Assembly: GCA_965552115.1 (NCBI GenBank)
Contig: CBEVQU010000002.1
Coordinates: 1 to 36,917 of the forward strand
DNA: 36,917 nucleotides
Origin: an uncultured bacterium
Lineage (GTDB): Bacteria > Patescibacteriota > Minisyncoccia > Minisyncoccales > CAZLLZ01
Reading direction: 5' to 3'
Numbering within the stretch: position 1 is the first letter of the stretch; every line of letters starts with the position of its first letter. This document shows positions 3-36,917 of this stretch, one piece after another. The notes below the pieces were generated by a model. The model was given only the letters and a program-made list of their open reading frames with translations, made no database searches and was not told the origin of the DNA. Made by a program: the position numbers and the translations under genes.

Positions 3-110
3 AAAGATGGATTCGGTTTTATAACAAAAGATGGTTCTCTCTCTGCTCATTTTGAGCATACAATTGCTATCACAAAAAAAGGCCCCATTATATTGACAAA
101 AACTAGTTAG
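3..110 (+). CDS. map: Methionine aminopeptidase, 3' end (truncated by window start)
   Basis: Manual translation KDGFGFITKDGSLSAHFEHTIAITKKGPIILTKTS* contains the MetAP C-terminal signature TKDGSLSAHFEHT. Confidence 0.9.
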   Translation, partial: KDGFGFITKDGSLSAHFEHTIAITKKGPIILTKTS

Positions 111-168
111 AGATTGGTTTTCTAACTGTTTTTTTGTTTTAAAATATTTTATGATAGAATAATTTAAA

Positions 169-903
169 ATGGAAAAAGATATTTTTTTATCAGTTATCAT
201 TCCAGCTTACAATGAAGAAAAGAGACTGCCAAAGACCTTAAAGGCAGTTTCAGATTATCTTTCTAAACAAGATTATGAGTTTGAAATTATTGTGGTAGAT
301 GATGGTTCCAGAGATAAGACAAAAGAAATTGCTGAAAATTTAAAAAGCAAGATTAAAAATTTAAGAGTTTTAAGTTATGAGAAAAACCAAGGGAAAGGAT
401 ATGCTGTAAGATTTGGAATGTTAAATAGTAAAGGAAAATATAGATTATTTATGGATGCAGATAATTCTACTTCAGTAGATCAGGTAGAGAAAATGTGGCC
501 TTATTTTAAAGAAGGATATGATGTTGTTATTGGTTCTCGAGATGTCAAAGGAGCTGTTTTAGATCCTCCTCAACCTCTTTATAGGAGATTTTTAGGAGAA
601 GTTTTTGGCTTTTTAGTTTCTTTATTTTGTGGCTTGTGGGGAATAAAAGATACTCAATGTGGATTTAAATGCTTTACTAAAAAGTCTGCTGAAGATATTT
701 TCAAGAGATGTAAAATAAATAGATTTGCTTTTGATCCTGAAATTTTAGTGATAGCTAAGAAGTTAGGTTATAGAATAAAAGAAATACCTGTTTATTGGAA
801 AAACGATCCAAATAGCAAAGTAAAATTTAAGAGTATGGTGAAAATGGGGATGGATTTAATAAAAATAAGAATAAATATTTTAAAAGGAGAATATTCAAAA
901 TGA
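169..903 (+). CDS. GT2 glycosyltransferase, dolichyl/polyprenyl-phosphate beta-glucosyltransferase-like
   Basis: LSVIIPAYNE, VVDDGSRD, NQGKGYA, FMDAD, DTQCGFK, FAFDPE motifs. Confidence 0.9.
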   Translation: MEKDIFLSVIIPAYNEEKRLPKTLKAVSDYLSKQDYEFEIIVVDDGSRDKTKEIAENLKSKIKNLRVLSYEKNQGKGYAVRFGMLNSKGKYRLFMDADNSTSVDQVEKMWPYFKEGYDVVIGSRDVKGAVLDPPQPLYRRFLGEVFGFLVSLFCGLWGIKDTQCGFKCFTKKSAEDIFKRCKINRFAFDPEILVIAKKLGYRIKEIPVYWKNDPNSKVKFKSMVKMGMDLIKIRINILKGEYSK

Positions 904-1952
904 AGAAAAAGAAGATTAAAAGTTTAAAATTTCCATCTGAATTAAGATTAGATTTAGTTTCAGGAGATTGGGTAGTAATAGCAACAGGTAGAGCAAAGAG
1001 ACCTGAAATGTTTAAGAAAGAAAAAAGGATAAAAGAAACTTTACCCAAAAGACTTTGTCCTTTTTGTAAAATTGAAACTCAACTTCCTCCTGTTTTAATT
1101 TTTTCTCAGGGGAAGAAAATTCCTTATAAAAAAGGGGATAAAATTCCAAAGAATTGGACAACCATTGTTATTCCAAATAAATTTCCGGCATTTTTACCTT
1201 TTGATCAACTAGATAAGAGAAAAGAGAATAATTTATATCAGAGAATGAATGCTGTTGGTTTCCATGAGGTGGTAGTGACACGAGATCATAAAAAGCAAAT
1301 TGCTCAATTTTCAAACAAAGAGGTTAAAGAGGTGATAGATGTTTATCATGAGAGATATTTAGATTTAATGAAAAGAAAGTTTGTAAGGTATGTTTCTATA
1401 TTTCACAATCATGGAGTGGAAGCTGGAGCTTCTATTGCTCATCCGCATTCTCAAATAATAACTACCCCTTTAATAGATGTTGATTTGAAAAAAGCTCTTT
1501 CTAAATCTAGGAAATTTTACAAAACTCACAAAAAATGTATTTATTGCGTAATGAACGATTGGGAAAGAAAACATCAAGAAAGAGTAGTTTTTGAGAATAA
1601 AAACTTTTTGGTGATTTGTCCTTTTGCTTCAAAATCTGCTTTTCAAATGATTATTTCTCCTAAAAAACACTCTCCTTATTTTGAGAAAATTACAGAAAAA
1701 GAAAAAAAAGATCTAGCTGAAGCTTTTAGGGTAGCTTTAGCTAAACTCTACAAAGCTTTGAATGACCCTCCTTATAATTTCTATTTACACACAGCTCCTG
1801 CAGATGGTAAAAAATACCCCTATTATCATTGGCATTTCACTATTTTACCTAAAACTTCTGTCTGGGCAGGTTTTGAATTAGGAGCTAGAATGGAAATTTC
1901 TACTATTGAACCTGAAAAAGCAGCTCAATATTTAAGGAAACAAAAAGTATGA
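900..1952 (+). CDS. galT: Galactose-1-phosphate uridylyltransferase
   Basis: ELRLDLVSGDWV...RAKRP, CPFC, PNKFPA, GASIAHPHSQI (HPH nucleophile), AGFELG. Confidence 0.92.
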   Translation: MKKKKIKSLKFPSELRLDLVSGDWVVIATGRAKRPEMFKKEKRIKETLPKRLCPFCKIETQLPPVLIFSQGKKIPYKKGDKIPKNWTTIVIPNKFPAFLPFDQLDKRKENNLYQRMNAVGFHEVVVTRDHKKQIAQFSNKEVKEVIDVYHERYLDLMKRKFVRYVSIFHNHGVEAGASIAHPHSQIITTPLIDVDLKKALSKSRKFYKTHKKCIYCVMNDWERKHQERVVFENKNFLVICPFASKSAFQMIISPKKHSPYFEKITEKEKKDLAEAFRVALAKLYKALNDPPYNFYLHTAPADGKKYPYYHWHFTILPKTSVWAGFELGARMEISTIEPEKAAQYLRKQKV

Positions 1953-1961
1953 AATAAAGAA

Positions 1962-2678
1962 ATGAGAAGTTTAAAAGATAATAACACCGCCCCTCTTATT
2001 TTTATTCTAGGAGGAGTTCATTGCTCAAGAAAGCTTTATAAAAAAGAAATTGATATTATAAAGGAGATAAATCCAGATGTGCTTTGCTTGGAAGAGATAA
2101 CTTCAGATAGATTATTTATTAAAGCGTGTGAAAAATTCTCGAAAGGAAAATTAAGACTTTCGGAATTTAAAAAAGCCGTTAAATTTGAAGAATACTGGTT
2201 TAAATTCGATCCTTATATTGAGCTTTTCAGTTTTATTCAAAAAAATAATATAAATTTATATCCCATAGATCATAAATTAAGAGAGCGTATAAAATTAATA
2301 AGATTAGAAAAAAAGATCTTAAAATTTATTAAGAAAGGAAAAAAAATCTCTAAATTAAAAAGACAAGAGGAAGAACTTTCTGTGGTTGAGAGAGAGAAAG
2401 AGATGGTTGAAAATATAGAAAAAGCACTTAAAAAATATAAAAGCAGAATTGCTTGCGTAATAGTTGGTTTAAATCATGTAGAGAGGTTAAAGAAGGTTTT
2501 ATCTCAGAGAGGATATAAAGTAAAAAGTGAGATTCTTTCCACTTCTAAAGAAATCGAAATTTATCTTCAAAGAATGTATAGATATGCAATAAGAAATAAA
2601 ATAGAAAATCTTGATCTTCCTCCTCTTGTACCAATCTTTGTATTAGTTTTTAAGTTATTAAATAAACAAATTAAATAA
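1962..2678 (+). CDS. Hypothetical protein, TraB/GumN/ChaN (TIKI/EreA-like) fold
   Basis: ILGGVH, DVLCLEE, REKEMVENI and IVGLNHV match the H/E/R/H pattern of this superfamily. Confidence 0.55.
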   Translation: MRSLKDNNTAPLIFILGGVHCSRKLYKKEIDIIKEINPDVLCLEEITSDRLFIKACEKFSKGKLRLSEFKKAVKFEEYWFKFDPYIELFSFIQKNNINLYPIDHKLRERIKLIRLEKKILKFIKKGKKISKLKRQEEELSVVEREKEMVENIEKALKKYKSRIACVIVGLNHVERLKKVLSQRGYKVKSEILSTSKEIEIYLQRMYRYAIRNKIENLDLPPLVPIFVLVFKLLNKQIK

Positions 2679-2682
2679 CATT

Positions 2683-3447
2683 ATGAAATATCAAATTATA
2701 GCTAACTGGAAAATGAATCCTCTTTTAGAAAAAGAAGCCCTTTCTCTTTTCAATTCTATAAGAAAGAAAGCAGAGAAATTTAAAAAATCAGAAATAATAA
2801 TTTGTCCTCCTTTTTTGTTTTTGTTTCTTTTTAAAAATAAAATATCAAAAAATTTAAAAATAGGAGCTCAAAATTGTTTTTTTGAAGAAAAAGGAGCTTT
2901 TACAGGTGAAATTTCACTAAAAATGCTTAAAAATTTTAAAGTAGAATATGTTATTTTAGGTCATTCTGAAAGAAGAAGATATTTTGGAGAAACAGATGAA
3001 ATGATTAACAAAAAAATAAAAGCTTCAATAAAAAATAAAATTAATCCTATTTTATGTATTGGAGAAACTCTCAAAGAAAGAAGAGAAAACAAAACTTTCA
3101 AAGTTTTAGAAAGACAAATAAAGACAGCTTTAAAAGGAATTTCTCAAAAAAGCCTTCAAAGAGTAAAATTGTCTTTAGCTTATGAACCTGTCTGGGCGAT
3201 TGGAAAGGGTAAAAGTTGCTCAGAAAGAGAGATAGAGAAAGCTTCTCTTTTTATTAAAAAAATTTTAGCTAAATTATATAGTATTTCTTTCTTTAAAAGG
3301 ATAAAAGTATTATATGGAGGAAGCGTGAATGAGAAAAATGCTAAAAAAATATTAAAAGAAGGGAGAGTAGAAGGCCTTTTAATAGGATCTGCTTCTTTGA
3401 AAAAAGAAGTTTTTATAAAGATTCTCAAGGAAGTTGAAGAAATTTGA
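2683..3447 (+). CDS. tpiA: Triosephosphate isomerase
   Basis: ANWKMN, GAFTGEIS, GHSERR, AYEPVWAIG, YGGSV. Confidence 0.97.
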   Translation: MKYQIIANWKMNPLLEKEALSLFNSIRKKAEKFKKSEIIICPPFLFLFLFKNKISKNLKIGAQNCFFEEKGAFTGEISLKMLKNFKVEYVILGHSERRRYFGETDEMINKKIKASIKNKINPILCIGETLKERRENKTFKVLERQIKTALKGISQKSLQRVKLSLAYEPVWAIGKGKSCSEREIEKASLFIKKILAKLYSISFFKRIKVLYGGSVNEKNAKKILKEGRVEGLLIGSASLKKEVFIKILKEVEEI

Positions 3448-3481
3448 CTTTTCTTTCAAAAGTAGTAGAATTTAGAAAACT

Positions 3482-4003
3482 ATGGAGATTTTAAAAGAAA
3501 GTATTAAAAAATATACTTTTTTTAACCCTACTAAGGGAAATTTATCTTTTTTAGAAGTAGTGAAAGAAATGATGGCTTATATTAAAGAAAAACCTGATAA
3601 AGATTATGAGGTGATTGTAGGATGCGATTCTTCATCAGATAAAGAGCCTCACTTCCCGGTAGCTTTAGTTATTTTAAGAAAAGGGGAAGGAGGAAGATTT
3701 TTCTTAAAAAGAATTAGCTATAAAAATAGAAAGTTTTATAATTGGAAAGAAAGAATTTTACAAGAGGTTTTAATCTCTTGTGAAATAGCCATATCTTTAA
3801 GGGAAGCTTTAAGAGAAGAAATCAAAAAGGAAAAATTAGTTTTAGGATATGAATTTAAATACATTCATGCAGACGTAGGAACAGGAGGAGCTACCAAAGA
3901 TATGATAAGAGAAGTGGTGGGGTTAATTAAAGGAAACGGGTTTGAAGCTAAAATCAAACCTGAAGCTTATGTCGCTTCTGTAGTAGCAGATAGATATGCT
4001 TAA
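3482..4003 (+). CDS. Ribonuclease H-like YkuK (DUF458) family protein
   Basis: VIVGCDSS, ERILQEV, IHADVG, IKPEAYVASVVADRY. Confidence 0.85.
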   Translation: MEILKESIKKYTFFNPTKGNLSFLEVVKEMMAYIKEKPDKDYEVIVGCDSSSDKEPHFPVALVILRKGEGGRFFLKRISYKNRKFYNWKERILQEVLISCEIAISLREALREEIKKEKLVLGYEFKYIHADVGTGGATKDMIREVVGLIKGNGFEAKIKPEAYVASVVADRYA

Positions 4004-4054
4004 TTTTCTTTTATTTTCAAAAAAAGAAAACCCAAAACAAAAATTTTTATTCCG

Positions 4055-4092
4055 ACCAAAATTCCACTGCTACGTAGCAGTGGAATTTTGGT
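4055..4092. repeat. Perfect 38-bp palindrome (terminator or cruciform candidate)
   Basis: accaaaattccactgctac|gtagcagtggaattttggt is self-complementary with no spacer. Confidence 0.9.
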
Positions 4093-4134
4093 GATTGAAA
4101 AATTGGAAATGTCTTTATTTTAGAGTTTTTGTGC

Positions 4135-4167
4135 TTGACAAAAAATATTTTGGGTATATACTCAAAA
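4135..4167 (+). promoter_or_regulatory. Sigma70-type promoter with overlapping imperfect palindrome (operator candidate)
   Basis: TTGACA 4135-4140, 16 nt spacer, TATACT 4157-4162; ttttgggtatatactcaaaa at 4148-4167 is near-palindromic. Confidence 0.65.
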
Positions 4168-4207
4168 AAAAGGTCGCTAATTGATTTATAAAATTTAAAG
4201 CTGAAAT

Positions 4208-4456
4208 ATGCCATTTGGTTTTGGAGGAGGCCCTTGGTGGTTATACTCCAATTATTCTGGAAGATTCCCTTATAGTTGGTGGAGGTGTTTTAGATTTCCT
4301 TGGCTACCTAGATGGTGGTGGGCTTACCCTTATTTTACAGACCAAATTTCTCCGACAGAAGAGAAAGAAATTTTATCCAAAGAATTAGAAATTTTGAGAG
4401 AAGAGATGAAAAACATTGAAGAGAGAATTAAAGAATTAGAAAAGAAGAAGAAATGA
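4208..4456 (+). CDS. DUF5320-like small protein
   Basis: Gly/Trp/Arg-rich N-terminus and C-terminal coiled coil EEKEILSKELEILREEMKNIEERIKELE; directly upstream of a NifX-family gene. Confidence 0.7.
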   Translation: MPFGFGGGPWWLYSNYSGRFPYSWWRCFRFPWLPRWWWAYPYFTDQISPTEEKEILSKELEILREEMKNIEERIKELEKKKK

Positions 4457-4866
4457 AAATTTGTATCACTTCTTTAGGTCCTGACTTGGATTCCTTGGTT
4501 GACCCTCGTTTTGGAAGGTGTGCTTTTTTTCTCTTTCTGAACGAAAAAGGAGAGCTAGAAGAAGTACTTCAAAACCCTGGAGTTGGAGCTATGAGGGGAG
4601 CTGGGATTTTAGCTGCTCAAGAAATAGCTTCTCGAGGAGCAAATATTCTTTTGACAGGAAATATAGGACCTAATGCTTTTGGAGTATTAGTTTCGATTGG
4701 AATTAAAATTTTTCTTGTCTCTCCTAATTTTTCGGTAAAAGAAGCTTTTTTAGCTTGGAAAGAGAATAAATTAACCCAATTGACCGCTCCTACTGCTCCT
4801 GGTCATTTCGGAAGAGGTTTCGGAAGAGGTTTCGGGAGAGGTTTTGGGAGAAAAAGAGGGTTTTAA
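4453..4866 (+). CDS. NifB/NifX family (FeMo-co binding fold) protein
   Basis: VDPRFGRC, GAGILAAQ, TGNIGPNAF, GRGF-repeat tail. Confidence 0.9.
   Translation: MKICITSLGPDLDSLVDPRFGRCAFFLFLNEKGELEEVLQNPGVGAMRGAGILAAQEIASRGANILLTGNIGPNAFGVLVSIGIKIFLVSPNFSVKEAFLAWKENKLTQLTAPTAPGHFGRGFGRGFGRGFGRKRGF
4806..4851 (+). repeat. 12-bp tandem repeat encoding (FGRG)n tail
   Basis: tttcggaagagg x2, tttcgggagagg, ttttgggaga. Confidence 0.85.
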
Positions 4867-4871
4867 AAATT

Positions 4872-6101
4872 ATGAAAGGAGAAAAGATTTCTCTCTTGAG
4901 CACTTTTTTGAATTTATTTTTAGCTGTTAGTAAATTAACCTTTGGTTTCATTATTAAAAGTATTGCTTTAATGGCAGATGGAGTCCATTCTGGTTTGGAC
5001 GTGATTTCTTCTTTTATCACTTTTTTGGGAATTAAAATTTCTCAAAAGCCAGTCGATGAAACTCATCCTTATGGATACTATAAAGCAGAAAGTATAGCAG
5101 GTTTTTTAGTCACCATTATTTTAGCTATTTCTGGTATTTGGATTTTGTATGAAGCTATTGAGAGAATTTTAGGTGAAAAAATTCCATTTTTTAGTTTGAA
5201 AGCTATTTTATTTGTTATCTTTTCTATTGTTTTAGTAGAAATTTTAGCTAGATTAAAATTTTATTATGGAGAAAAATATCAATCTCTCTCTTTGATAGCT
5301 GACGCTGAACATTCAAGGGCAGATGCTATTTCTTCTGTAGGAGTTTTAATTGGTTTGATAGCGATAAAATATTTTCCTTTAGCTGATGCTTTTATTGCTT
5401 TAGGAATTTCTTTCTTTGTTTTATTTCAAGCTGTCAAAATCGGGAAAGAAATTACAGATTCCTTATTAGATGTGGCTAATAAAGAAGTTGAAGAAAGAAT
5501 CAGAAAAATTTGTCAAGCCCACAATATTGAGATTTCTCAAATCAAAACAAGGAAAATAGGTTCGGCAAATTTTGCTGAAGTAAAAATCAAACTTCCTCTG
5601 AAATTAAAAGTAGAAGAAGTCGATAAAATTACAAAATCTTTAGAAGAAAGAGTTCTTTCAAATATTCCAGAATTAAAATACATAGTTTTTTCTATTGAAC
5701 CTTATCAAGTCAAAAGAAGTGTTATTTTACAAGATTTTGGGAGAAAGATCTGTTCAGTAGAGGGAATAGAAAAAATTGGACCAAAAAAATTAGGGAAAAG
5801 GATAATAATCCCTCTTGAGAATAAAAAAATCGCTAAAACTTTCGGAGCAAAAAATTATCTCATTTTAGATAAGAAAGAAGGAAAAATTTTAAGAAAAGAA
5901 ATAATAAAAAACATTTATTTTAAAAAAACCTCTCCTCATGGAGCTCGTTTTGCTAAAGCTGTCAGAGCAGACAAAGTTTTCACTTATCAAATAGGAAAGA
6001 ATGCTAAAAAGAATTTAGAAAATTTTGGAATAGAAATTGAAATTATTCCTTCAGAGAAAAAAATAAAAGATCTTATTTCTGAAATTGAAAAAGAAAATTA
6101 A
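4872..6101 (+). CDS. Cation diffusion facilitator (FieF-like) with C-terminal NifX-like domain
   Basis: ADGVHSGLD, HPYGYYKAE, ADAEHSRAD, about 6 hydrophobic segments; C-terminal TFGAKNY...QIGKNA resembles the NifX fold. Confidence 0.9.
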   Translation: MKGEKISLLSTFLNLFLAVSKLTFGFIIKSIALMADGVHSGLDVISSFITFLGIKISQKPVDETHPYGYYKAESIAGFLVTIILAISGIWILYEAIERILGEKIPFFSLKAILFVIFSIVLVEILARLKFYYGEKYQSLSLIADAEHSRADAISSVGVLIGLIAIKYFPLADAFIALGISFFVLFQAVKIGKEITDSLLDVANKEVEERIRKICQAHNIEISQIKTRKIGSANFAEVKIKLPLKLKVEEVDKITKSLEERVLSNIPELKYIVFSIEPYQVKRSVILQDFGRKICSVEGIEKIGPKKLGKRIIIPLENKKIAKTFGAKNYLILDKKEGKILRKEIIKNIYFKKTSPHGARFAKAVRADKVFTYQIGKNAKKNLENFGIEIEIIPSEKKIKDLISEIEKEN

Positions 6102-31909: not shown

Positions 31910-32599
31910 ATGAGATATCCAGAGATTGACTTCAAAATAAAAAAGGAGACAGATTTTTATTTATATAAAATCTTTTCAAAAGAAAATCGAAGAATTTTGG
32001 ATGCATGTTTTTATAATTTATATAGTGATCTATCTTGTCTTAAAAAAAAGAACCTTTCTTCAAAGGAAAAAATAAAAGTTATAAAAAATTTTATTGAGGA
32101 ATATTATAAGAAACATCAAAGAGAGATTGAAGAAAACCTAATGGAAATAGAAAAAGATTGGAATGGAATAAAAAATGATTTTTTTAGATTAGTTGATAAA
32201 ATTTTCAAAAATCACCCTTGGCCTAAAGGAAAATATATAGCTTATGTAACTATTTGGGGAATTTATCCACGTGATATAAAAGAAAAGATATTTTTCATAC
32301 CTTATAAAGATAAAAAATTAGCTTTAGAAGTTATCGCCCACGAAATGCTTCATTTTATCTTTTATGATTATCTTTATAGCCATTATCCGAAATATAAAAA
32401 GAAAAAATATCAAAAGAGGATTTGGAAAATCTCAGAATCTTTTAATGTGATTATACAAAATCAAAGAGAGTGGGTAGCTCTTTTTCACAAAAGACCTGAG
32501 GTTTATCCAGAACTTAAAAAATTAATTCAAAAAATTAGAAAGATTTGGAGAGAAAAAAAAGACATAGATTATTTATTAAAAAAGATTCTACCTAGATAA
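31910..32599 (+). CDS. Hypothetical HEXXH zincin-like metalloprotease
   Basis: VIAHEMLHF with a downstream Glu (WKISES). Confidence 0.6.
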   Translation: MRYPEIDFKIKKETDFYLYKIFSKENRRILDACFYNLYSDLSCLKKKNLSSKEKIKVIKNFIEEYYKKHQREIEENLMEIEKDWNGIKNDFFRLVDKIFKNHPWPKGKYIAYVTIWGIYPRDIKEKIFFIPYKDKKLALEVIAHEMLHFIFYDYLYSHYPKYKKKKYQKRIWKISESFNVIIQNQREWVALFHKRPEVYPELKKLIQKIRKIWREKKDIDYLLKKILPR

Positions 32600-32614
32600 T
32601 GATAGCTGTTTTGT

Positions 32615-33238
32615 TTAAATTTCTTTCTTTACTATGCATTCAATTACTGTATGGAAATGAGGACTTCCGTGAGAAGTGTCTCTAAAACGTCTTTCTTCAA
32701 AAGAAATAATTTCCAATCCTTTTAATAAATCTTTTACTTCTTTTTTTGGAAAAAAATGTCTAAATATCTGTTTTCTTGGAAGAAAAAAAGTATTTCTCTC
32801 TACTTCTTTGAAATTTTCTTTGAACCGCTTAAAAAAAGGATCTCTTATTGAGAAAACAGATAGATAGAAGATACCTTTATTTTTTAAAGCTTTTTTAATT
32901 TTTTTTATTATCTTTTCTACTTCCTTTCTCTTTAAAAAATCTAAAACTGAAATAGCAATAATCAGTGAATAGGTTTTTGGAGAAAATTTGAATTTCCTCA
33001 CATCTATTAGTTTAGCTTTAATATTTAGTCGTTGTTTTTCAGAAATTTTTTTAATAAATTCTATATTTTCTGGTGAGATATCTATCGCTGTTACTTCAAA
33101 CCCATTTTTAGCAAGAAAAAAACTATTTCTTCCATTTCCTGCTCCAATATCAAGAGCTTTTCCTTTAGAAGAATATTTTATAATTTTTTTTAATCTTTTT
33201 ACGGGTTTTGTATAAAGATTCACATAGGGAAAATTCAT
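32615..33238 (-). CDS. Class I SAM-dependent methyltransferase (TehB-like)
   Basis: ALDIGAGNGRNSFFLAKNGFEVTAID; C-terminal HGSPHFH. Confidence 0.85.
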   Translation of the reverse strand: MNFPYVNLYTKPVKRLKKIIKYSSKGKALDIGAGNGRNSFFLAKNGFEVTAIDISPENIEFIKKISEKQRLNIKAKLIDVRKFKFSPKTYSLIIAISVLDFLKRKEVEKIIKKIKKALKNKGIFYLSVFSIRDPFFKRFKENFKEVERNTFFLPRKQIFRHFFPKKEVKDLLKGLEIISFEERRFRDTSHGSPHFHTVIECIVKKEI

Positions 33239-33249
33239 ATCTAACTTGT

Positions 33250-33293
33250 TTGACTGTTTTCCTCTCTACATTATATAATAAAAATAAAGGTGA
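33250..33293 (+). promoter_or_regulatory. Promoter and RBS of the Cys-rich peptide gene
   Basis: TTGACT 33250-33255, TATAAT 33274-33279, AAGGTGA 33287-33293 ahead of ATG 33298. Confidence 0.7.
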
Positions 33294-33297
33294 TGAA

Positions 33298-33456
33298 ATG
33301 AAAGATGAAGAGAGGAAGATTCTAGAAAGATATGCATTTTGGAACCTGAGTAAATGGCAAAAGGAATTTTGTGAAAGTTGTCGAGGGTGTGGTGCGCCAT
33401 CTTGTGGATGTGAAACAGGATGTAGTTGTTCTCCTGGATGTGGAGGTCCTGCTTAA
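33298..33456 (+). CDS. 52-aa Cys-rich peptide (RiPP precursor or metallothionein-like)
   Basis: MKDEERKILERYAFWNLSKWQKEF-CESCRGCGAPSCGCETGCSCSPGCGGPA: charged leader-like half plus 8 Cys in a Gly/Ser/Pro core; has its own promoter, RBS and terminator. Confidence 0.8.
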   Translation: MKDEERKILERYAFWNLSKWQKEFCESCRGCGAPSCGCETGCSCSPGCGGPA

Positions 33457-33492
33457 CTCTTGTTCTTTTTCTAAAAATCTGTTTTCAAAAGC

Positions 33493-33527
33493 AAATAGCA
33501 TACTCTCAGGGTATGCTATTTATTTTT
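33493..33527 (+). terminator. Intrinsic terminator after the Cys-rich peptide gene
   Basis: aaatagcatac/gtatgctattt stem followed by a T-rich tract. Confidence 0.75.
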
Positions 33528-33562
33528 CTCTTTACTAGAATATGTAAATTTTTAATATTTTC

Positions 33563-33641
33563 GGCTTGACAGATAAATTTGGAATAAAGCATAAAAAAAT
33601 AAGTTGCTGTTTAAAATAAAATATGGAGGTGAAAAAAATGG
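33563..33641 (+). repeat. Duplicated promoter-leader-RBS cassette, copy 1
   Basis: ggcttgacagataaatttggaataaagcataaaaaaataagttgctgtttaaaataaaatatggaggtgaaaaaaatgg, near-identical to 35472-35551. Confidence 0.92.
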
Positions 33642-34339
33642 GCGGAAAAAACCATCAGCCGTGTAGGAAATATATTCGAGAGTCTATTATGCTTTCCAAA
33701 GCGACTTCTGATATTTTAGCGAAGCTTGAGATAGCGAATTCTCTTTTGGAAGATGTTTTACTTGCAGAGCTTAATGGAGAAAATAAGAGCCGATATATGA
33801 AGGACATTCTTAAATATTTGATTGAAAGTAAAAATAAAACAGAAGAAGCTCTCAAATATATTAATTGTATTCTAGTAAAAATGGACAAATTAAAGTTCCA
33901 AGATAGCGAGATGCTAAATGAAATATTAGCTCTTAAAGATGCTTTTATTGAGCTAGAAATTATTCCTCGAAGAGAATTTTCAGCTTGGGAAATAACGGCG
34001 AGTATACTTGAAAAAGAAGGATTTAAAGGAATTTTTATTTATTTCCATAAACTTTTAGAGAAGATAAAAGAAAATCTACAAGAATTAATTGAACTTTTTG
34101 TAAAAGGACAAGAGTATACTGAAAAAGGGAACCTATTAGAAGCTATTGAGACGAACGAATTACCAATAAGGCAAAGCTTTGTAAAGGTATATTTAGCTTA
34201 TTTAGATTTTTCAGCAATTTTCACTTGTTCTAGCATAATTTCAACTGAAGTTTATTTAAGAACCAATGGCTATCCTTCACTCCTTTCGGATTTAAATTTC
34301 CCAAGGAAGAGAGATGCGGTTATACTTTCGGAAGTTTAA
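33638..34339 (+). CDS. Hypothetical all-alpha protein (233 aa)
   Basis: GGAGGTG RBS places the start at ATG 33638 (MGGKNHQPC...); amphipathic helices; no family recognised. Confidence 0.7.
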   Translation: MGGKNHQPCRKYIRESIMLSKATSDILAKLEIANSLLEDVLLAELNGENKSRYMKDILKYLIESKNKTEEALKYINCILVKMDKLKFQDSEMLNEILALKDAFIELEIIPRREFSAWEITASILEKEGFKGIFIYFHKLLEKIKENLQELIELFVKGQEYTEKGNLLEAIETNELPIRQSFVKVYLAYLDFSAIFTCSSIISTEVYLRTNGYPSLLSDLNFPRKRDAVILSEV

Positions 34340-34368
34340 GAAATTTCCGATGTTTTATATCTTAAATG

Positions 34369-34398
34369 AATCCGAATCTTTAATGATTCGGATTTTTT
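34369..34398 (+). terminator. Intrinsic terminator
   Basis: aatccgaatc-tttaat-gattcggatt followed by a T tract. Confidence 0.75.
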
Positions 34399-34411
34399 AT
34401 TTTTAAAAGAT

Positions 34412-35416
34412 ATGATAGAATTTAATTACAATAAAAGAATTCTTATGGATAACAAAGCTAAGAAAATAAAAATTTCTTTTTCGTTGGACAAAAGAATTTT
34501 TTGTCTTTATTGTGCTTTGGTTTCATGTAATATTCATGAGAAATTCAAAAAAAATTTATCAAAGAGTAATTTTTATAAAGAGCTACAGAGTCATTTTCAG
34601 CACCTCAAACTTAGTAGCAGAAAAAAACTAGAGCATTTTTTTAATCGGAATCATTATTTCCAATATCTTTGTTGGGTCCTTCGTCATTCTGATTTTCCTG
34701 AATTTAAGCTAAGAACAAGAAATAAAGATTCTCTTCAAAAGCCAGATAGTTGGTTTGATGGTTTTGATGAAGTTTTGAGAAGGTTTTATAAAGAAGCGGA
34801 AATAAAAAAACTTTGGGAAAGATCAAAACCAAAGTATCAAAAAATAATTTTTCTTTATCAAGAAGAAACGGAAAAGAAGATTTTAGAAGTAATCAGACGT
34901 GTAAGAGAAAAAAAAATAAAATTGTATTTTAACGAAATAGTATTAATCCCCAATCTTTTAGAGGCAATAGGGGTAGGTTTTGCTCCGATGATTCCTCCAA
35001 GAGCTTATATAATTTTCGGCCCTTCTACTAAAAAAGTTAATACTTCCTTAATTATTCATGAGTTTTTACATCATTTGATTAATCCTTTGCTTGAAGAAAA
35101 AGAGATAAAAAAGAAACTCATAATTTTTAGAAAAAAGTATTTTTCTTTTACAACTCCTTTATCAAGAAAATTCTATCCTAAATGGAGTTGGATTGCCTCA
35201 GAATATTTTGTTCGAGCTTTTCAAGCAACTCTCATTCAAAATAAAATCGAAAGAGAAAAATTTCTTAAAATGGAAGAAAAGCAAGGTTTTCCTAAAATCA
35301 AATGGTTTTTTTACTGCTTTCAAAAATTTAAACATAGAGATTCCATGAGAAAACAAATAATCGAAATTCTTGATGAGTTATCCAAAAGTAAAAATTTAGG
35401 ATTAACAGAGGATTAG
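34412..35416 (+). CDS. HEXXH metallopeptidase-like protein (DUF4932-like)
   Basis: IIHEFLHHLINP...YPKW..IASEYFVRA...EEKQGF; the true start may be ATG 34445. Confidence 0.7.
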   Translation: MIEFNYNKRILMDNKAKKIKISFSLDKRIFCLYCALVSCNIHEKFKKNLSKSNFYKELQSHFQHLKLSSRKKLEHFFNRNHYFQYLCWVLRHSDFPEFKLRTRNKDSLQKPDSWFDGFDEVLRRFYKEAEIKKLWERSKPKYQKIIFLYQEETEKKILEVIRRVREKKIKLYFNEIVLIPNLLEAIGVGFAPMIPPRAYIIFGPSTKKVNTSLIIHEFLHHLINPLLEEKEIKKKLIIFRKKYFSFTTPLSRKFYPKWSWIASEYFVRAFQATLIQNKIEREKFLKMEEKQGFPKIKWFFYCFQKFKHRDSMRKQIIEILDELSKSKNLGLTED

Positions 35417-35471
35417 CTTTTTAGAATATATCAAAGATTTTTTAACAGAAGAAAAATGTTTTTAAAATTTT

Positions 35472-35551
35472 GGCTTGACAGATAAATTTGGAATAAAGTA
35501 TAAAAAAAAATAAATTGCTGTTTAAAATAAAATATGGAGGTGAAAAAATGG
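35472..35551 (+). repeat. Duplicated promoter-leader-RBS cassette, copy 2
   Basis: Differs from copy 1 by two substitutions and two A-run lengths. Confidence 0.92.
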
Positions 35552-35661
35552 AAGATAAAAAAGAATTTGTTAAGAAAGTTCTTTCTGATATTAAGAAAGA
35601 AGAGAAAGATATGAAACCAGATGATTGGAGAGGTCTTCTTCATAATTGGATAAAATGCTAA
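35548..35661 (+). CDS. 37-aa peptide not in the ORF track (candidate RiPP precursor)
   Basis: MEDKKEFVKKVLSDIKKEEKDMKPDDWRGLLHNWIKC*; preceded by GGAGGTG and TTGACA, immediately followed by a terminator. Confidence 0.75.
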   Translation: MEDKKEFVKKVLSDIKKEEKDMKPDDWRGLLHNWIKC

Positions 35662-35663
35662 AT

Positions 35664-35693
35664 TGGGCTAAGCTAATTTTTAGCCCATTTTTT
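35664..35693 (+). terminator. Intrinsic terminator after the 37-aa peptide gene
   Basis: tgggctaa/ttagccca stem followed by T6. Confidence 0.75.
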
Positions 35694-35730
35694 ATATTGT
35701 ATTTTTTTTAGAAACTGATAAAATTTGATT

Positions 35731-36609
35731 ATGAACTGGAAACTAAAAAAAATTATTACCAAAGATGGGATTAATCTAGAAGGGATATTTTTTCTTCCTC
35801 CGAGTCATAAGAATAAAGGAATACTTTTTATTCACGGTTTCACAGGAAATTTTTATAGTAATATTGAAATACTCAATGCTTTGGCAGAGAGACTTGGAAA
35901 ATTTGGGTTTGGTGTTGCATCTTTTAATACGCGGGGTCATGATATTATTAGTTGGATTCGCTGCGAAGGAAAAAAAGAAAAGAAGCTATTAATTCTAGGT
36001 GGAGCTTTTGAAAAATTTGAAGATTGTATTTTAGATATAGAAGCTGGCTTGAAGTTTTTACATTCTCAAGGTTTTAATGATCTTATATTAATAGGAATAA
36101 GTACTGGGGCAGACAAAGTAGCTTATTATTTATCTAAACCTCATAGTAAGTTAATTAGAGGCGCAGTTTTTCTATCACCCGCTGACAATATTTTAATTGG
36201 CCGAAAAGAGTTAGGGAAAAAGCTTGATACGATCTTAAAGAAAACAAAAAGAATGATAAAAATAGGCAAAAAGAATGAGCTTATTTTAGATCCATTACTT
36301 GAATTTCCTATTTCTTATCATCGTTTTTTTAGCTTGTACCAAGAAGGAAGCAATGAAAATGTCTTTGTTTTTCATAGTCGGGTAAAAAAGTCCAAGGTTT
36401 TATCAAGGATTAAAGAACCTATTTTTTTAATATTAGGAGAGAAAGATAGATATTTATATAATTATTCTCCTCAGTTTGTAATAAGAATCATTAAAAGAAA
36501 TATTTATTCGAGTTTTAAATCAGCGGTAATAAAAGACGCAGGCCATAACTTCAAAGGTAAAGAAAAAAAATTAGCCAATTTGATTGCTAATTGGATTAAG
36601 AAACTATAA
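35731..36609 (+). CDS. Alpha/beta hydrolase (DUF1749-like serine hydrolase)
   Basis: FIHGFTGNFY, RGHD, nucleophile GISTG, GEKD, AGHNF. Confidence 0.85.
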   Translation: MNWKLKKIITKDGINLEGIFFLPPSHKNKGILFIHGFTGNFYSNIEILNALAERLGKFGFGVASFNTRGHDIISWIRCEGKKEKKLLILGGAFEKFEDCILDIEAGLKFLHSQGFNDLILIGISTGADKVAYYLSKPHSKLIRGAVFLSPADNILIGRKELGKKLDTILKKTKRMIKIGKKNELILDPLLEFPISYHRFFSLYQEGSNENVFVFHSRVKKSKVLSRIKEPIFLILGEKDRYLYNYSPQFVIRIIKRNIYSSFKSAVIKDAGHNFKGKEKKLANLIANWIKKL

Positions 36610-36758
36610 CTTAATTATTATTTTTTAGTTAGTCCCTGATGTTTTTTTCAGTCTTTTTACTGGAATTTTAAGATATTTTGTTCTAATAACAGCTGGAAAC
36701 TAGCTTCATTTTTGACATTATTTAAGGAGTGTAATATATAAAAGAGAGGTGATGTAAG

Positions 36759-36917
36759 GTGTCTAATCAAATAAGTGCATTAAAAAGTAAATATGGAAAT
36801 GAGAAGATAAAGGAATACTGGTTTTCCATTCAGCTTAAACCGGTAGGAAGTGCGTGTAATATCGCAAGAGGATGGCGATCGAGGAGAGTTACCGGGGCCT
36901 CAAAGCTCTTTTGGGCC
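36759..36917 (+). CDS. N-terminus of anSME/SPASM-like radical SAM protein, partial and interrupted
   Basis: GAGGTGA RBS, GTG start, MSNQISALKSKYGNEKIKEYWFSIQLKPVGSACNI; KPxGxxCN is the anSME-type lead-in to CxxxCxxC, but the 2nd and 3rd Cys are absent. Confidence 0.65.
   Translation, partial: MSNQISALKSKYGNEKIKEYWFSIQLKPVGSACNIARGWRSRRVTGASKLFWA

Follow-up and report, generated by a model that had tools for sequence, protein, structure and literature searches.

A conserved 37-residue peptide as the probable substrate of a compact anSME-like radical SAM/SPASM enzyme in Patescibacteria and other bacteria

Organization of the locus

The window analysed here, 36,917 nt in length, is an entire 36.9-kb contig (C2) of a genome of 587 kb in 35 contigs, which is estimated to be 97.76% complete and has a G+C content of ~30% (29.5%). 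Towards its 3' end, on the + strand, lies a 37-codon ORF (35548..35661) that starts with an ATG at 35548, stops with a TAA at 35659-35661 and, as read from the sequence, encodes MEDKKEFVKKVLSDIKKEEKDMKPDDWRGLLHNWIKC. We treat it as a precursor peptide gene, its product comprising a leader of approximately residues 1-26 and a conserved core, W27-R28-G29-x3-N33-W34-x-K36-C37, that runs directly into the stop codon. An earlier note on this DNA had pointed out the ORF as one framed by a duplicated promoter and ribosome-binding site and by a terminator, and its start, stop and length are as described there. A Shine-Dalgarno sequence, GGAGGTG, is present at 35536-35542, 5 nt 5' of the ATG, and a strong site of this kind precedes the peptide start in all six of the loci inspected.

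The framing elements proved equally real. The ~85 nt before the peptide ATG (35465-35550) are 94% identical to 33557-33637, and a genome-wide comparison found exactly two copies of this promoter/5' UTR/RBS module in the 587 kb, both on the + strand: copy 1 (33557..33637), which precedes a 233-aa ORF (33638..34339), and copy 2 (35465..35547), which precedes the peptide gene. The two have a 27-nt exact core in common, for which 100 shuffles gave no chance match, and the copy before the peptide gene is recent. The promoter hexamers, read from the sequence, are TTGACA (-35, 35475-35480) and TATAAA (-10, 35499-35504), separated by an 18-nt spacer; a consensus promoter scan misses them because it demands a T at the last -10 position, where an A is found here. 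The 233-aa protein has 13 relatives, which are unnamed or 'hypothetical', and it is absent from the other peptide/enzyme loci compared.

On the other side, a hairpin resembling an intrinsic terminator (35664..35693, + strand) begins 2 nt past the stop codon, as the earlier note had stated; it consists of a 9-bp stem with four GC pairs (hairpin 35664-35687) followed by TTTTTT. Five terminator-like sites were observed in 32500-36917 against 1.3 expected from shuffles, and similar hairpins lie 3' of the peptide gene in loci L022, L025, L026 and L028. An Rfam search of 33000-36917 gave two matches only, both far under their gathering scores. Contigs from RNA libraries cover parts of the wider region at a depth of 2-5; over the peptide gene itself, two libraries of one sample gave contigs covering 35556-35868 and 35636-35803 at a depth of 2-3. 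These low-depth contigs are compatible with transcription, although DNA carry-over may also account for them, and gaps in the cover carry no information. They differ from the window at 35635 and 35642, which belong to the variable codons 30 and 32 of the peptide gene.

Downstream lie an alpha/beta hydrolase gene (35731..36609, + strand), DUF1749/Hydrolase_4-like by Pfam and with a G-I-S-T-G nucleophile motif, and then the 5' end of a gene for a radical SAM/SPASM maturase (36759..36862, + strand). The remainder of the latter is carried by contig C23 (L001:1-1101), which overlaps the window at 36783-36862 (80 nt, 98.75% identity), and an intact 374-aa protein in a public collection (P0045) matches the join of window and C23 exactly. 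Comparison with C23 and P0045 further indicates that the final ~55 nt of C2 (36863..36917), which diverge from both and break the radical SAM frame after the residues CN, are an assembly artefact.

Conservation of the peptide and its association with the enzyme

The earlier note tied the ORF to the radical SAM/SPASM enzyme and looked to homologous small ORFs beside radical SAM genes for support. Homologues of the peptide were found in 15 further distinct loci, in 14 of which the peptide gene directly follows a radical SAM/SPASM gene whose product is 41-69% identical to the enzyme starting at 36759. With the window included, peptide and enzyme therefore occur together in 15 of 16 distinct loci, which come from searches anchored on the enzyme and searches anchored on the peptide.

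Anchored on the enzyme, a genome collection yielded a locus with 69% identity in a Saccharibacteria MAG (L022), and a metagenome collection yielded six with 53-69% identity and a further two with only 19-25%. Since L024 repeats the DNA of L022, and L028 does not differ from L029 in its core, the seven closer loci count as five distinct ones. All of them (7/7; 5/5 distinct) have the peptide directly downstream, ending D-W-R-[GA]-x3-N-W-[IT]-K-C-stop, and no peptide ORF follows the enzyme in the two distant loci. A profile built from two peptides and searched against 1.84 billion representatives gave 13 matches at E<=0.001, comprising 12 family members of 31-53 aa, one of them truncated, and one false match to a repeat protein. 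A DNA-pattern scan of the genome collection for the core W-R-[GA]-x3-N-W-x-K-C gave 17 matches, of which 11 were family members with a leader, ten of them new; the other six, with neither leader nor enzyme, were chance. The ten new loci come from MAGs assigned to Bacilli (4), Alphaproteobacteria/Rickettsiales (3), Saccharibacteria (1) and Nealsonbacteria (1), with one unclassified, and nine of them have the enzyme gene (41-58% identity) immediately 5' of the peptide gene, the 945-nt locus L044 having room for a C-terminal piece of it alone. The exception is the Nealsonbacteria locus L040, which has the peptide and a hydrolase with no enzyme within 8 kb; none was found at E<=1e-5 in its ~0.7-Mb MAG either. 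Across 60 genomes from the window's own order, the peptide search gave chance matches only (E>=0.016, mostly inside long ORFs) and the best enzyme match had 34% identity, with no close homologue among them. As neither was found in these genomes, the system is sporadic in its distribution.

An alignment of 24 peptides shows W27, R28, W34, K36 and C37 to be invariant and G29 and N33 to be at least 90% conserved, with I, T, V or M at position 35. Ten of the 24 were picked by a pattern that holds the conserved core residues and so provide no independent test of them, but the enzyme-anchored loci and profile matches, chosen without the pattern, show the same conserved residues. The leader varies in sequence and length and keeps a helix pattern, K-K-E-F-V-x-x-V-L-x-x-V-K. 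The peptide is thus bipartite in its pattern, a variable helix-patterned leader being followed by a conserved C-terminal core, and no cleavage site was recognized. The invariant C-terminal Cys and the W27-R28 pair, like the closeness of the enzyme to anSME described below, were not mentioned in the earlier note.

Short ORFs are frequent in DNA of 29.5% GC, and an ORF of 37 codons might for that reason be thought a product of chance. However, the 15 other distinct loci, which represent at least three phyla, contain homologues with invariant residues, and their codons vary synonymously: among the 16 loci all six Arg codons are used for Arg28, the Lys, Cys, Asn and Gly codons vary as well, and TAA, TGA and TAG all occur as stop codons with Cys always the last residue. 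Since the residues are conserved while the codons change, selection acts on the protein and not on an RNA or promoter. A chance origin, to which we attach a negligible probability, is thus refuted by the homologues and the codon variation, and by its conservation across loci the ORF is, at the level of sequence, a real conserved peptide gene. The loci likewise show, through gene order and identity, that the peptide travels with the enzyme family across MAGs of Patescibacteria, Bacilli and Alphaproteobacteria.

In the window the peptide gene stands 1.1 kb upstream of the enzyme gene and before the hydrolase gene, and elsewhere it comes immediately after the enzyme gene. In this genome the peptide gene has probably been relocated upstream of the enzyme, and it has gained a duplicate of a strong promoter as well as a terminator of its own. 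These would give rise to a separate short transcript and probably to a higher expression of the precursor.

The earlier note had also proposed that a second, Cys-rich peptide in the window carried a recognition or modification motif in common with the 37-aa peptide. This 52-aa ORF (33298..33456), which has its own promoter-like site (11/12 matches) and terminator, does contain the stretch WNLSKWQKEFC, but its only distant relative, 67% identical, is without the W-Q-K part and the proposal finds no support. It has just two relatives, with one weak match in the 60 same-order genomes and no match in a pattern search, and none of the seven radical SAM-anchored loci compared has a Cys-rich ORF of at least 45 aa beside the enzyme. 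With two relatives only and no pattern matches, we rejected the Cys-rich peptide as a second substrate.

An anSME-like enzyme without an RRE

The enzyme consists of the Pfam domains Radical_SAM and SPASM, and no N-terminal RRE was found in it with Pfam and NCBIfam models. Its best NCBIfam match is the anaerobic sulfatase-maturating enzyme (anSME) model TIGR03942, aligned over its full length at 264.1 bits and under the cut-off of 349.45, followed by DynA (NF041298; 191.5 bits, cut-off 450); the PapB, GrrM/OscB, DarW and TIGR04083 models score ~156-157 bits each. It falls under every curated NCBIfam cut-off. The closest solved structure is also an anSME, that of C. perfringens (4k36-4k39; E 3.6e-49, residues 15-353), the next matches being ChlB and CteB (5wgg, E 2.2e-16). 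The CX3CX2C motif and eight SPASM cysteines (C253, C259, C274, C315, C318, C324, C328 and C347) are invariant in 14 enzyme sequences, and the eight align with cysteines of anSME; we take them to be the ligands of two fully Cys-ligated auxiliary clusters. Furthermore, Y-P-C-E in the enzyme aligns with the Y-P-C-D of anSME, in which the Asp has a catalytic role.

The enzyme thus resembles anSME in its size, in having no RRE and in its set of cysteines. It differs in falling under the TIGR03942 cut-off and in its partner, a 37-aa peptide without what we take to be the sulfatase motif, C/S-x-P-x-R. Furthermore, a search for the sulfatase domain PF00884 gave no match in the window's genome, of which 97.76% is estimated to be present, while the control search was positive in 10 of 14 genomes. 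Since the genome is without a sulfatase domain, the enzyme is by function no sulfatase maturase.

The earlier note likened H-N-W-I-K in the peptide to the spacing in darobactin, the core of which, W-N-W-S-K, contains W-x-K, and it named DarE among the enzymes for comparison. If the peptide were a precursor of this type, H32-N-W34-I-K36 would receive two fused cross-links from a DarE-like enzyme. The invariance of W34-x-K36 is in keeping with this, so that this half of the likeness stands, as is the full-length matching of the enzyme to DynA, DarW (156.5 bits) and DarE (NF038005; 123.3 bits), which like our enzyme are SPASM proteins and which act, as ours would, on a short C-terminal core with Trp. 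Nevertheless, the first aromatic residue, on which the other half depends, is not conserved, position 32 being H, Y, Q, N, V, S or T across the family and mostly non-aromatic. The three scores are far under the cut-offs (450 for DynA, 650 each for DarW and DarE), which does not fit an enzyme of DarE type. The alignment to DarE begins only at profile position 83, so that its N-terminal part is missing, and neither the invariant C-terminal Cys nor W27-R28-G29 has a counterpart in the darobactin core. A darobactin-type precursor is therefore quite unlikely.

The triceptide maturases are related to our enzyme in a similar manner, with scores (bits/cut-off) of 156.6/310 for GrrM/OscB, 69.9/450 for XyeB, 99.1/370 for FxsB, 136.6/445 for YhhB and 137.6/425 for AmcB. 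Their aromatic-x-X logic is one that W34-x-K36 fits, but the peptide has a single motif with no repeats, and its terminal Cys is unexplained by cyclophane chemistry. Among thioether-forming enzymes, the scores are 157.3 bits for PapB (cut-off 340) and 77.9 bits for the SCIFF maturase (cut-off 425); because the latter alignment begins at profile position 104, the enzyme is without an RRE of the CteB type.

A model of the peptide-enzyme complex

The peptide and enzyme were modelled together from a 24-row peptide alignment and a 14-row enzyme alignment with SAM and three 4Fe-4S clusters. Over three runs the complex had a median ipSAE of 0.86, and the best of three controls scored 0.02; in calibration, 58 of 80 solved complexes and 2 of 110 mismatched pairs attained the mark applied. 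The runs had at least 73% of contacts in common, with a partner pLDDT of at least 62. The model is taken as supporting, rather than establishing, the binding of the peptide to the enzyme, and the solved anSME-peptide complexes 4k38 and 4k39 may have aided the active-site part of this result. Together with the co-occurrence in 15 of 16 loci, it upholds the tie between the two that was suggested earlier.

In the confident contacts of the model, leader residues 4-16 (F7, V8, V11, L12 and I15) lie on enzyme residues 226-246 and 361-365. K36-C37 are placed inside the barrel beside C274, Y276 and C328, of which C274 and C328 are auxiliary-cluster cysteines, and contact enzyme residues 63, 65, 99, 103, 168, 195, 197, 274, 276 and 328. 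We consider it very probable that the 37-aa ORF encodes the precursor, that is the substrate, of the anSME-like radical SAM/SPASM enzyme 1.1 kb downstream. As modelled, the amphipathic leader would dock on the RRE-less enzyme at residues 226-246 and 361-365, and the C-terminal K36-C37 would reach the active-site barrel. The core, W-R-G-x3-N-W-x-K-C, may there lose a hydrogen from its C-terminal end to the 5'-deoxyadenosyl radical.

The strict co-occurrence of peptide and enzyme would fit equally well if the peptide were an accessory subunit, which might lend its C-terminal Cys as a ligand for an Fe-S cluster or control access to the active site while the enzyme acted on some other substrate. 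The confidently modelled interface, with C37 next to C274 and C328 as cluster ligands, would suit this role just as well, and no exporter or dedicated protease is conserved across the compared loci. Against this, the eight SPASM cysteines are all invariant, so that no ligand appears to be missing, and the loci have no conserved alternative substrate. A variable leader joined to a conserved core, and in the window a promoter and terminator of its own, are moreover traits of a precursor peptide. We regard a subunit role as unlikely.

Possible modifications of the core

For the peptide as precursor, several modifications can be considered. A carbon-carbon cyclophane from W34 to K36 is the leading, still tentative, candidate; it is a live option because W34-x-K36 is invariant. 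According to PMC11851443, known radical SAM cyclophane cross-links span three to five residues.

A thioether from C37 to N33 or to another acceptor may also be envisaged as a minority possibility. According to the same source, NxxcB joins the C-beta of Asn to the S of Cys and QmpB joins the C-alpha of Asn to the S of Cys (PMC11851443). Since such Asn-Cys links are known, Asn33 is the obvious acceptor, and the family has in common with the thioether formers NxxcB, QmpB, PapB and CteB/SCIFF a conserved Asn and a Cys, here four residues apart (N33 and C37). It departs from them in having one Cys, always last, in an N-x3-C rather than N-x-x-C spacing, and in the enzyme having no RRE. With its full set of eight SPASM cysteines the enzyme is presumably more like anSME than like CteB, which has an open coordination site, and these invariant, anSME-like cysteines are a mild argument against chemistry on a cluster-bound thiolate.

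Less probably, the C-terminal Cys could undergo an oxidation or oxidative decarboxylation in the manner of anSME or MftC. In mycofactocin biosynthesis, the SPASM enzyme MftC modifies the final residue of the small peptide MftA, the core of which ends V-Y. MftA resembles our family in its conserved C-terminus and offers a precedent for chemistry that needs a free C-terminal carboxylate; a similar use of the carboxylate would explain why the Cys always stands before the stop codon. The cores are nevertheless different. MftC is absent among the 25 best NCBIfam matches of the enzyme, and no MftB-, MftD- or MftE-like genes were seen in the window and the compared loci. Some other modification takes up the small remainder of the probability. 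WprB, which forms a Trp-Arg cross-link, was considered as a model for W27-R28 and rejected, the enzyme scoring only 63.3 bits on the WgkB model; WprB is described in PMC11851443 as a twitch-domain enzyme related to WgkB.

Neighbouring genes

Neighbours were clustered over 16 DNA sets, made up of 14 loci, the window end and C23. L034 (43% identity) and L040 each have a homologue of the DUF1749 hydrolase gene immediately 3' of the peptide gene. Lying between the peptide and enzyme genes in the window, the alpha/beta hydrolase is a candidate processing enzyme. A different reading of this arrangement is that the ORF encodes a cis-acting leader or arrest peptide, the translation of which would decide whether transcription passes the terminator at 35664 and enters the hydrolase gene. 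The window does offer the required order, with an ORF, a terminator 2 nt past its stop and the hydrolase gene 70 nt further, and the order of peptide then hydrolase is repeated in L034 and L040; one of the RNA-library contigs (35556-35868) even crosses the terminator. In 12 of the 15 other loci, however, the peptide gene is followed not by a hydrolase gene but by various others, encoding a methyltransferase, an AMP-binding enzyme, a recombinase, a PLD protein or an S66 peptidase. Since the conserved side chains instead go with the enzyme, and the modelled complex with it passes the controls, a regulatory role in cis is very unlikely.

In L022, L025 and L026 the gene after that for the peptide encodes a class-I methyltransferase, of which L028/L029 have fragments. 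The TehB-like methyltransferase of the window (32615..33238) was rejected as its orthologue, at 28-31% identity over 111-148 aa, and the L022 methyltransferase had no tblastn match in the window's genome at E<=1e-3. Three other associations were discarded: the proximity of histidine kinases in six loci, where generic kinase domains may account for the match; an 'F1' cluster member in L034 as an ABC-F protein, with 26-29% identity over ~240 aa and a distance of 2.2 kb; and ThrRS beside the locus in L038 and L040, a housekeeping coincidence.

A third recurring partner, besides the hydrolase and the methyltransferase, is an ABC-F ATPase, the gene for which directly abuts the enzyme gene in seven loci, four of them from Bacilli, two from Alphaproteobacteria and one from Saccharibacteria. 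In each of the seven the ABC-F gene comes first, followed by those for the radical SAM enzyme and the peptide, with the genes abutting or overlapping. Four of the ABC-F proteins were scanned with NF000355, 'ribosomal protection-like ABC-F' (cut-off 380), and three passed with 430.4, 427.1 and 403.6 bits, the fourth (L036) lying 7 bits under the cut-off at 373.1. The identities of ABC-F and enzyme between loci run in parallel, and the enzymes of Alphaproteobacteria and Bacilli form one clade (support 99/98), which fits the transfer of a three-gene cassette. Judging by these relationships, ABC-F, enzyme and peptide genes seem to move as a unit. No ABC-F was found in the window's genome.

The ABC-F link in the relatives points to the ribosome. 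It is conceivable, if rather speculative, that the modified peptide acts on the ribosome, and that the ABC-F protein is the producer's ribosome-protection partner or serves the peptide as a means of adjusting translation in the cell itself. The arrangement recalls the ABC-F genes of antibiotic producers (TlrC/CarA/OleB/SrmB type) in that the ABC-F gene abuts the enzyme gene in seven relatives, but it is unlike them in that the scores of the linked ABC-F proteins for the named resistance subfamilies are far under the cut-offs. Furthermore, in the five host genomes examined for this (0.8-1.4 Mb) the linked ABC-F is the sole strong ABC-F, so that there is no clear sign of its being an additional copy for immunity. 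The hosts examined overall have genomes of 0.6-1.4 Mb.

Significance

Neither Pfam nor NCBIfam has a model for the peptide family, and its members, where named in sources at all, are called 'hypothetical protein'. Among the matches listed by literature searches, no publication deals with the family, and none was found that links an ABC-F, a radical SAM enzyme and a precursor peptide. Most likely the peptide is a new family within a known kind, the radical SAM/SPASM-modified peptides. The family is defined by a fixed core, W-R-G-x3-N-W-x-K-C-COOH, and by a compact, RRE-less, anSME-like maturase. Its discovery also indicates that genes for 30-40 aa in candidate-phyla genomes are recoverable by anchoring on their enzymes. 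The recurring ABC-F partner provides a concrete target hypothesis, which is rare for orphan RiPP families. If the ribosome-directed role were true, it would bring with it a new cross-link dependent on a C-terminal Cys. A peptide that acts inside the cell on translation, in reduced bacteria which probably rely on a host, would then be new biology for radical SAM peptides.

The gene for the anSME-like radical SAM/SPASM enzyme, which starts at 36759 in the window, was found to continue on contig C23 of the same genome (locus L001, 1-1101). The final ~55 nt of the window contig (36863-36917) differ from the true sequence of this gene, and an intact 374-aa form of the protein is present in a public collection. 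Immediately 3' of the gene on C23 lies a 352-aa ORF (1209-2267) that gave no family match in Pfam or NCBIfam and was without a homologue in the other loci compared.

Between 71 and 93% of the words sampled from window positions 33200-36860 were present in metagenomic runs of three studies, labelled as marine sediment and hydrothermal vent; the source assembly itself may be among them. Contigs from RNA libraries carried two changes within the peptide gene at a depth of 2-3, C>T at 35635 and A>G at 35642, the latter being present in two runs of one sample. These changes fall in codons 30 and 32, both of which are variable positions of the core.

The locus in the window has an HExxH protein on either side, a 229-aa protein with the motif HEMLH (31910-32599, forward strand) and a DUF4932 protein with the motif HEFLH (34412-35416, forward strand), and either could be a leader peptidase. 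A homologue of the HEMLH protein is also found near a peptide gene in L040, a locus of a Nealsonbacteria MAG, where an "orphan" peptide gene is followed by a DUF1749 hydrolase, a methyltransferase-like protein, a histidine kinase and the HEMLH protein (765-5345). This gene order partially matches that of the window together with C23, but a radical SAM gene was found neither in the L040 locus nor in its MAG. In two unrelated loci, L028 (3345-4310 and 7444-8388) and L036 (5846-6751), genes for peptidase S66 (LD-carboxypeptidase), the family to which MccF belongs, come directly after that of the peptide and are encoded on the strand opposite to it.

The duplicated promoter has its other copy in front of a 233-aa ORF (33638-34339, forward strand), and it is possible that this ORF and the peptide gene are co-regulated. 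The ORF gave no match in Pfam or NCBIfam, and its 13 relatives are all unnamed or "hypothetical". The 52-aa Cys-rich ORF (33298-33456, forward strand), with 12 Cys among its final 28 residues, has its own near-consensus promoter (TTGACT-18-TATAAT, 33250-33279) and terminator (33493-33521). Only two relatives were found, at 96% and 67% identity, and no linkage to the enzyme was seen in other loci.

In locus L041, the enzyme has a second homologue encoded nearby, as is a hybrid histidine kinase/response regulator (1-980 and 1310-3121, reverse strand). In L042, a large serine recombinase (107-2164, reverse strand) lies just downstream of the cassette of ABC-F, enzyme and peptide genes, a hint that the cassette may be mobile.
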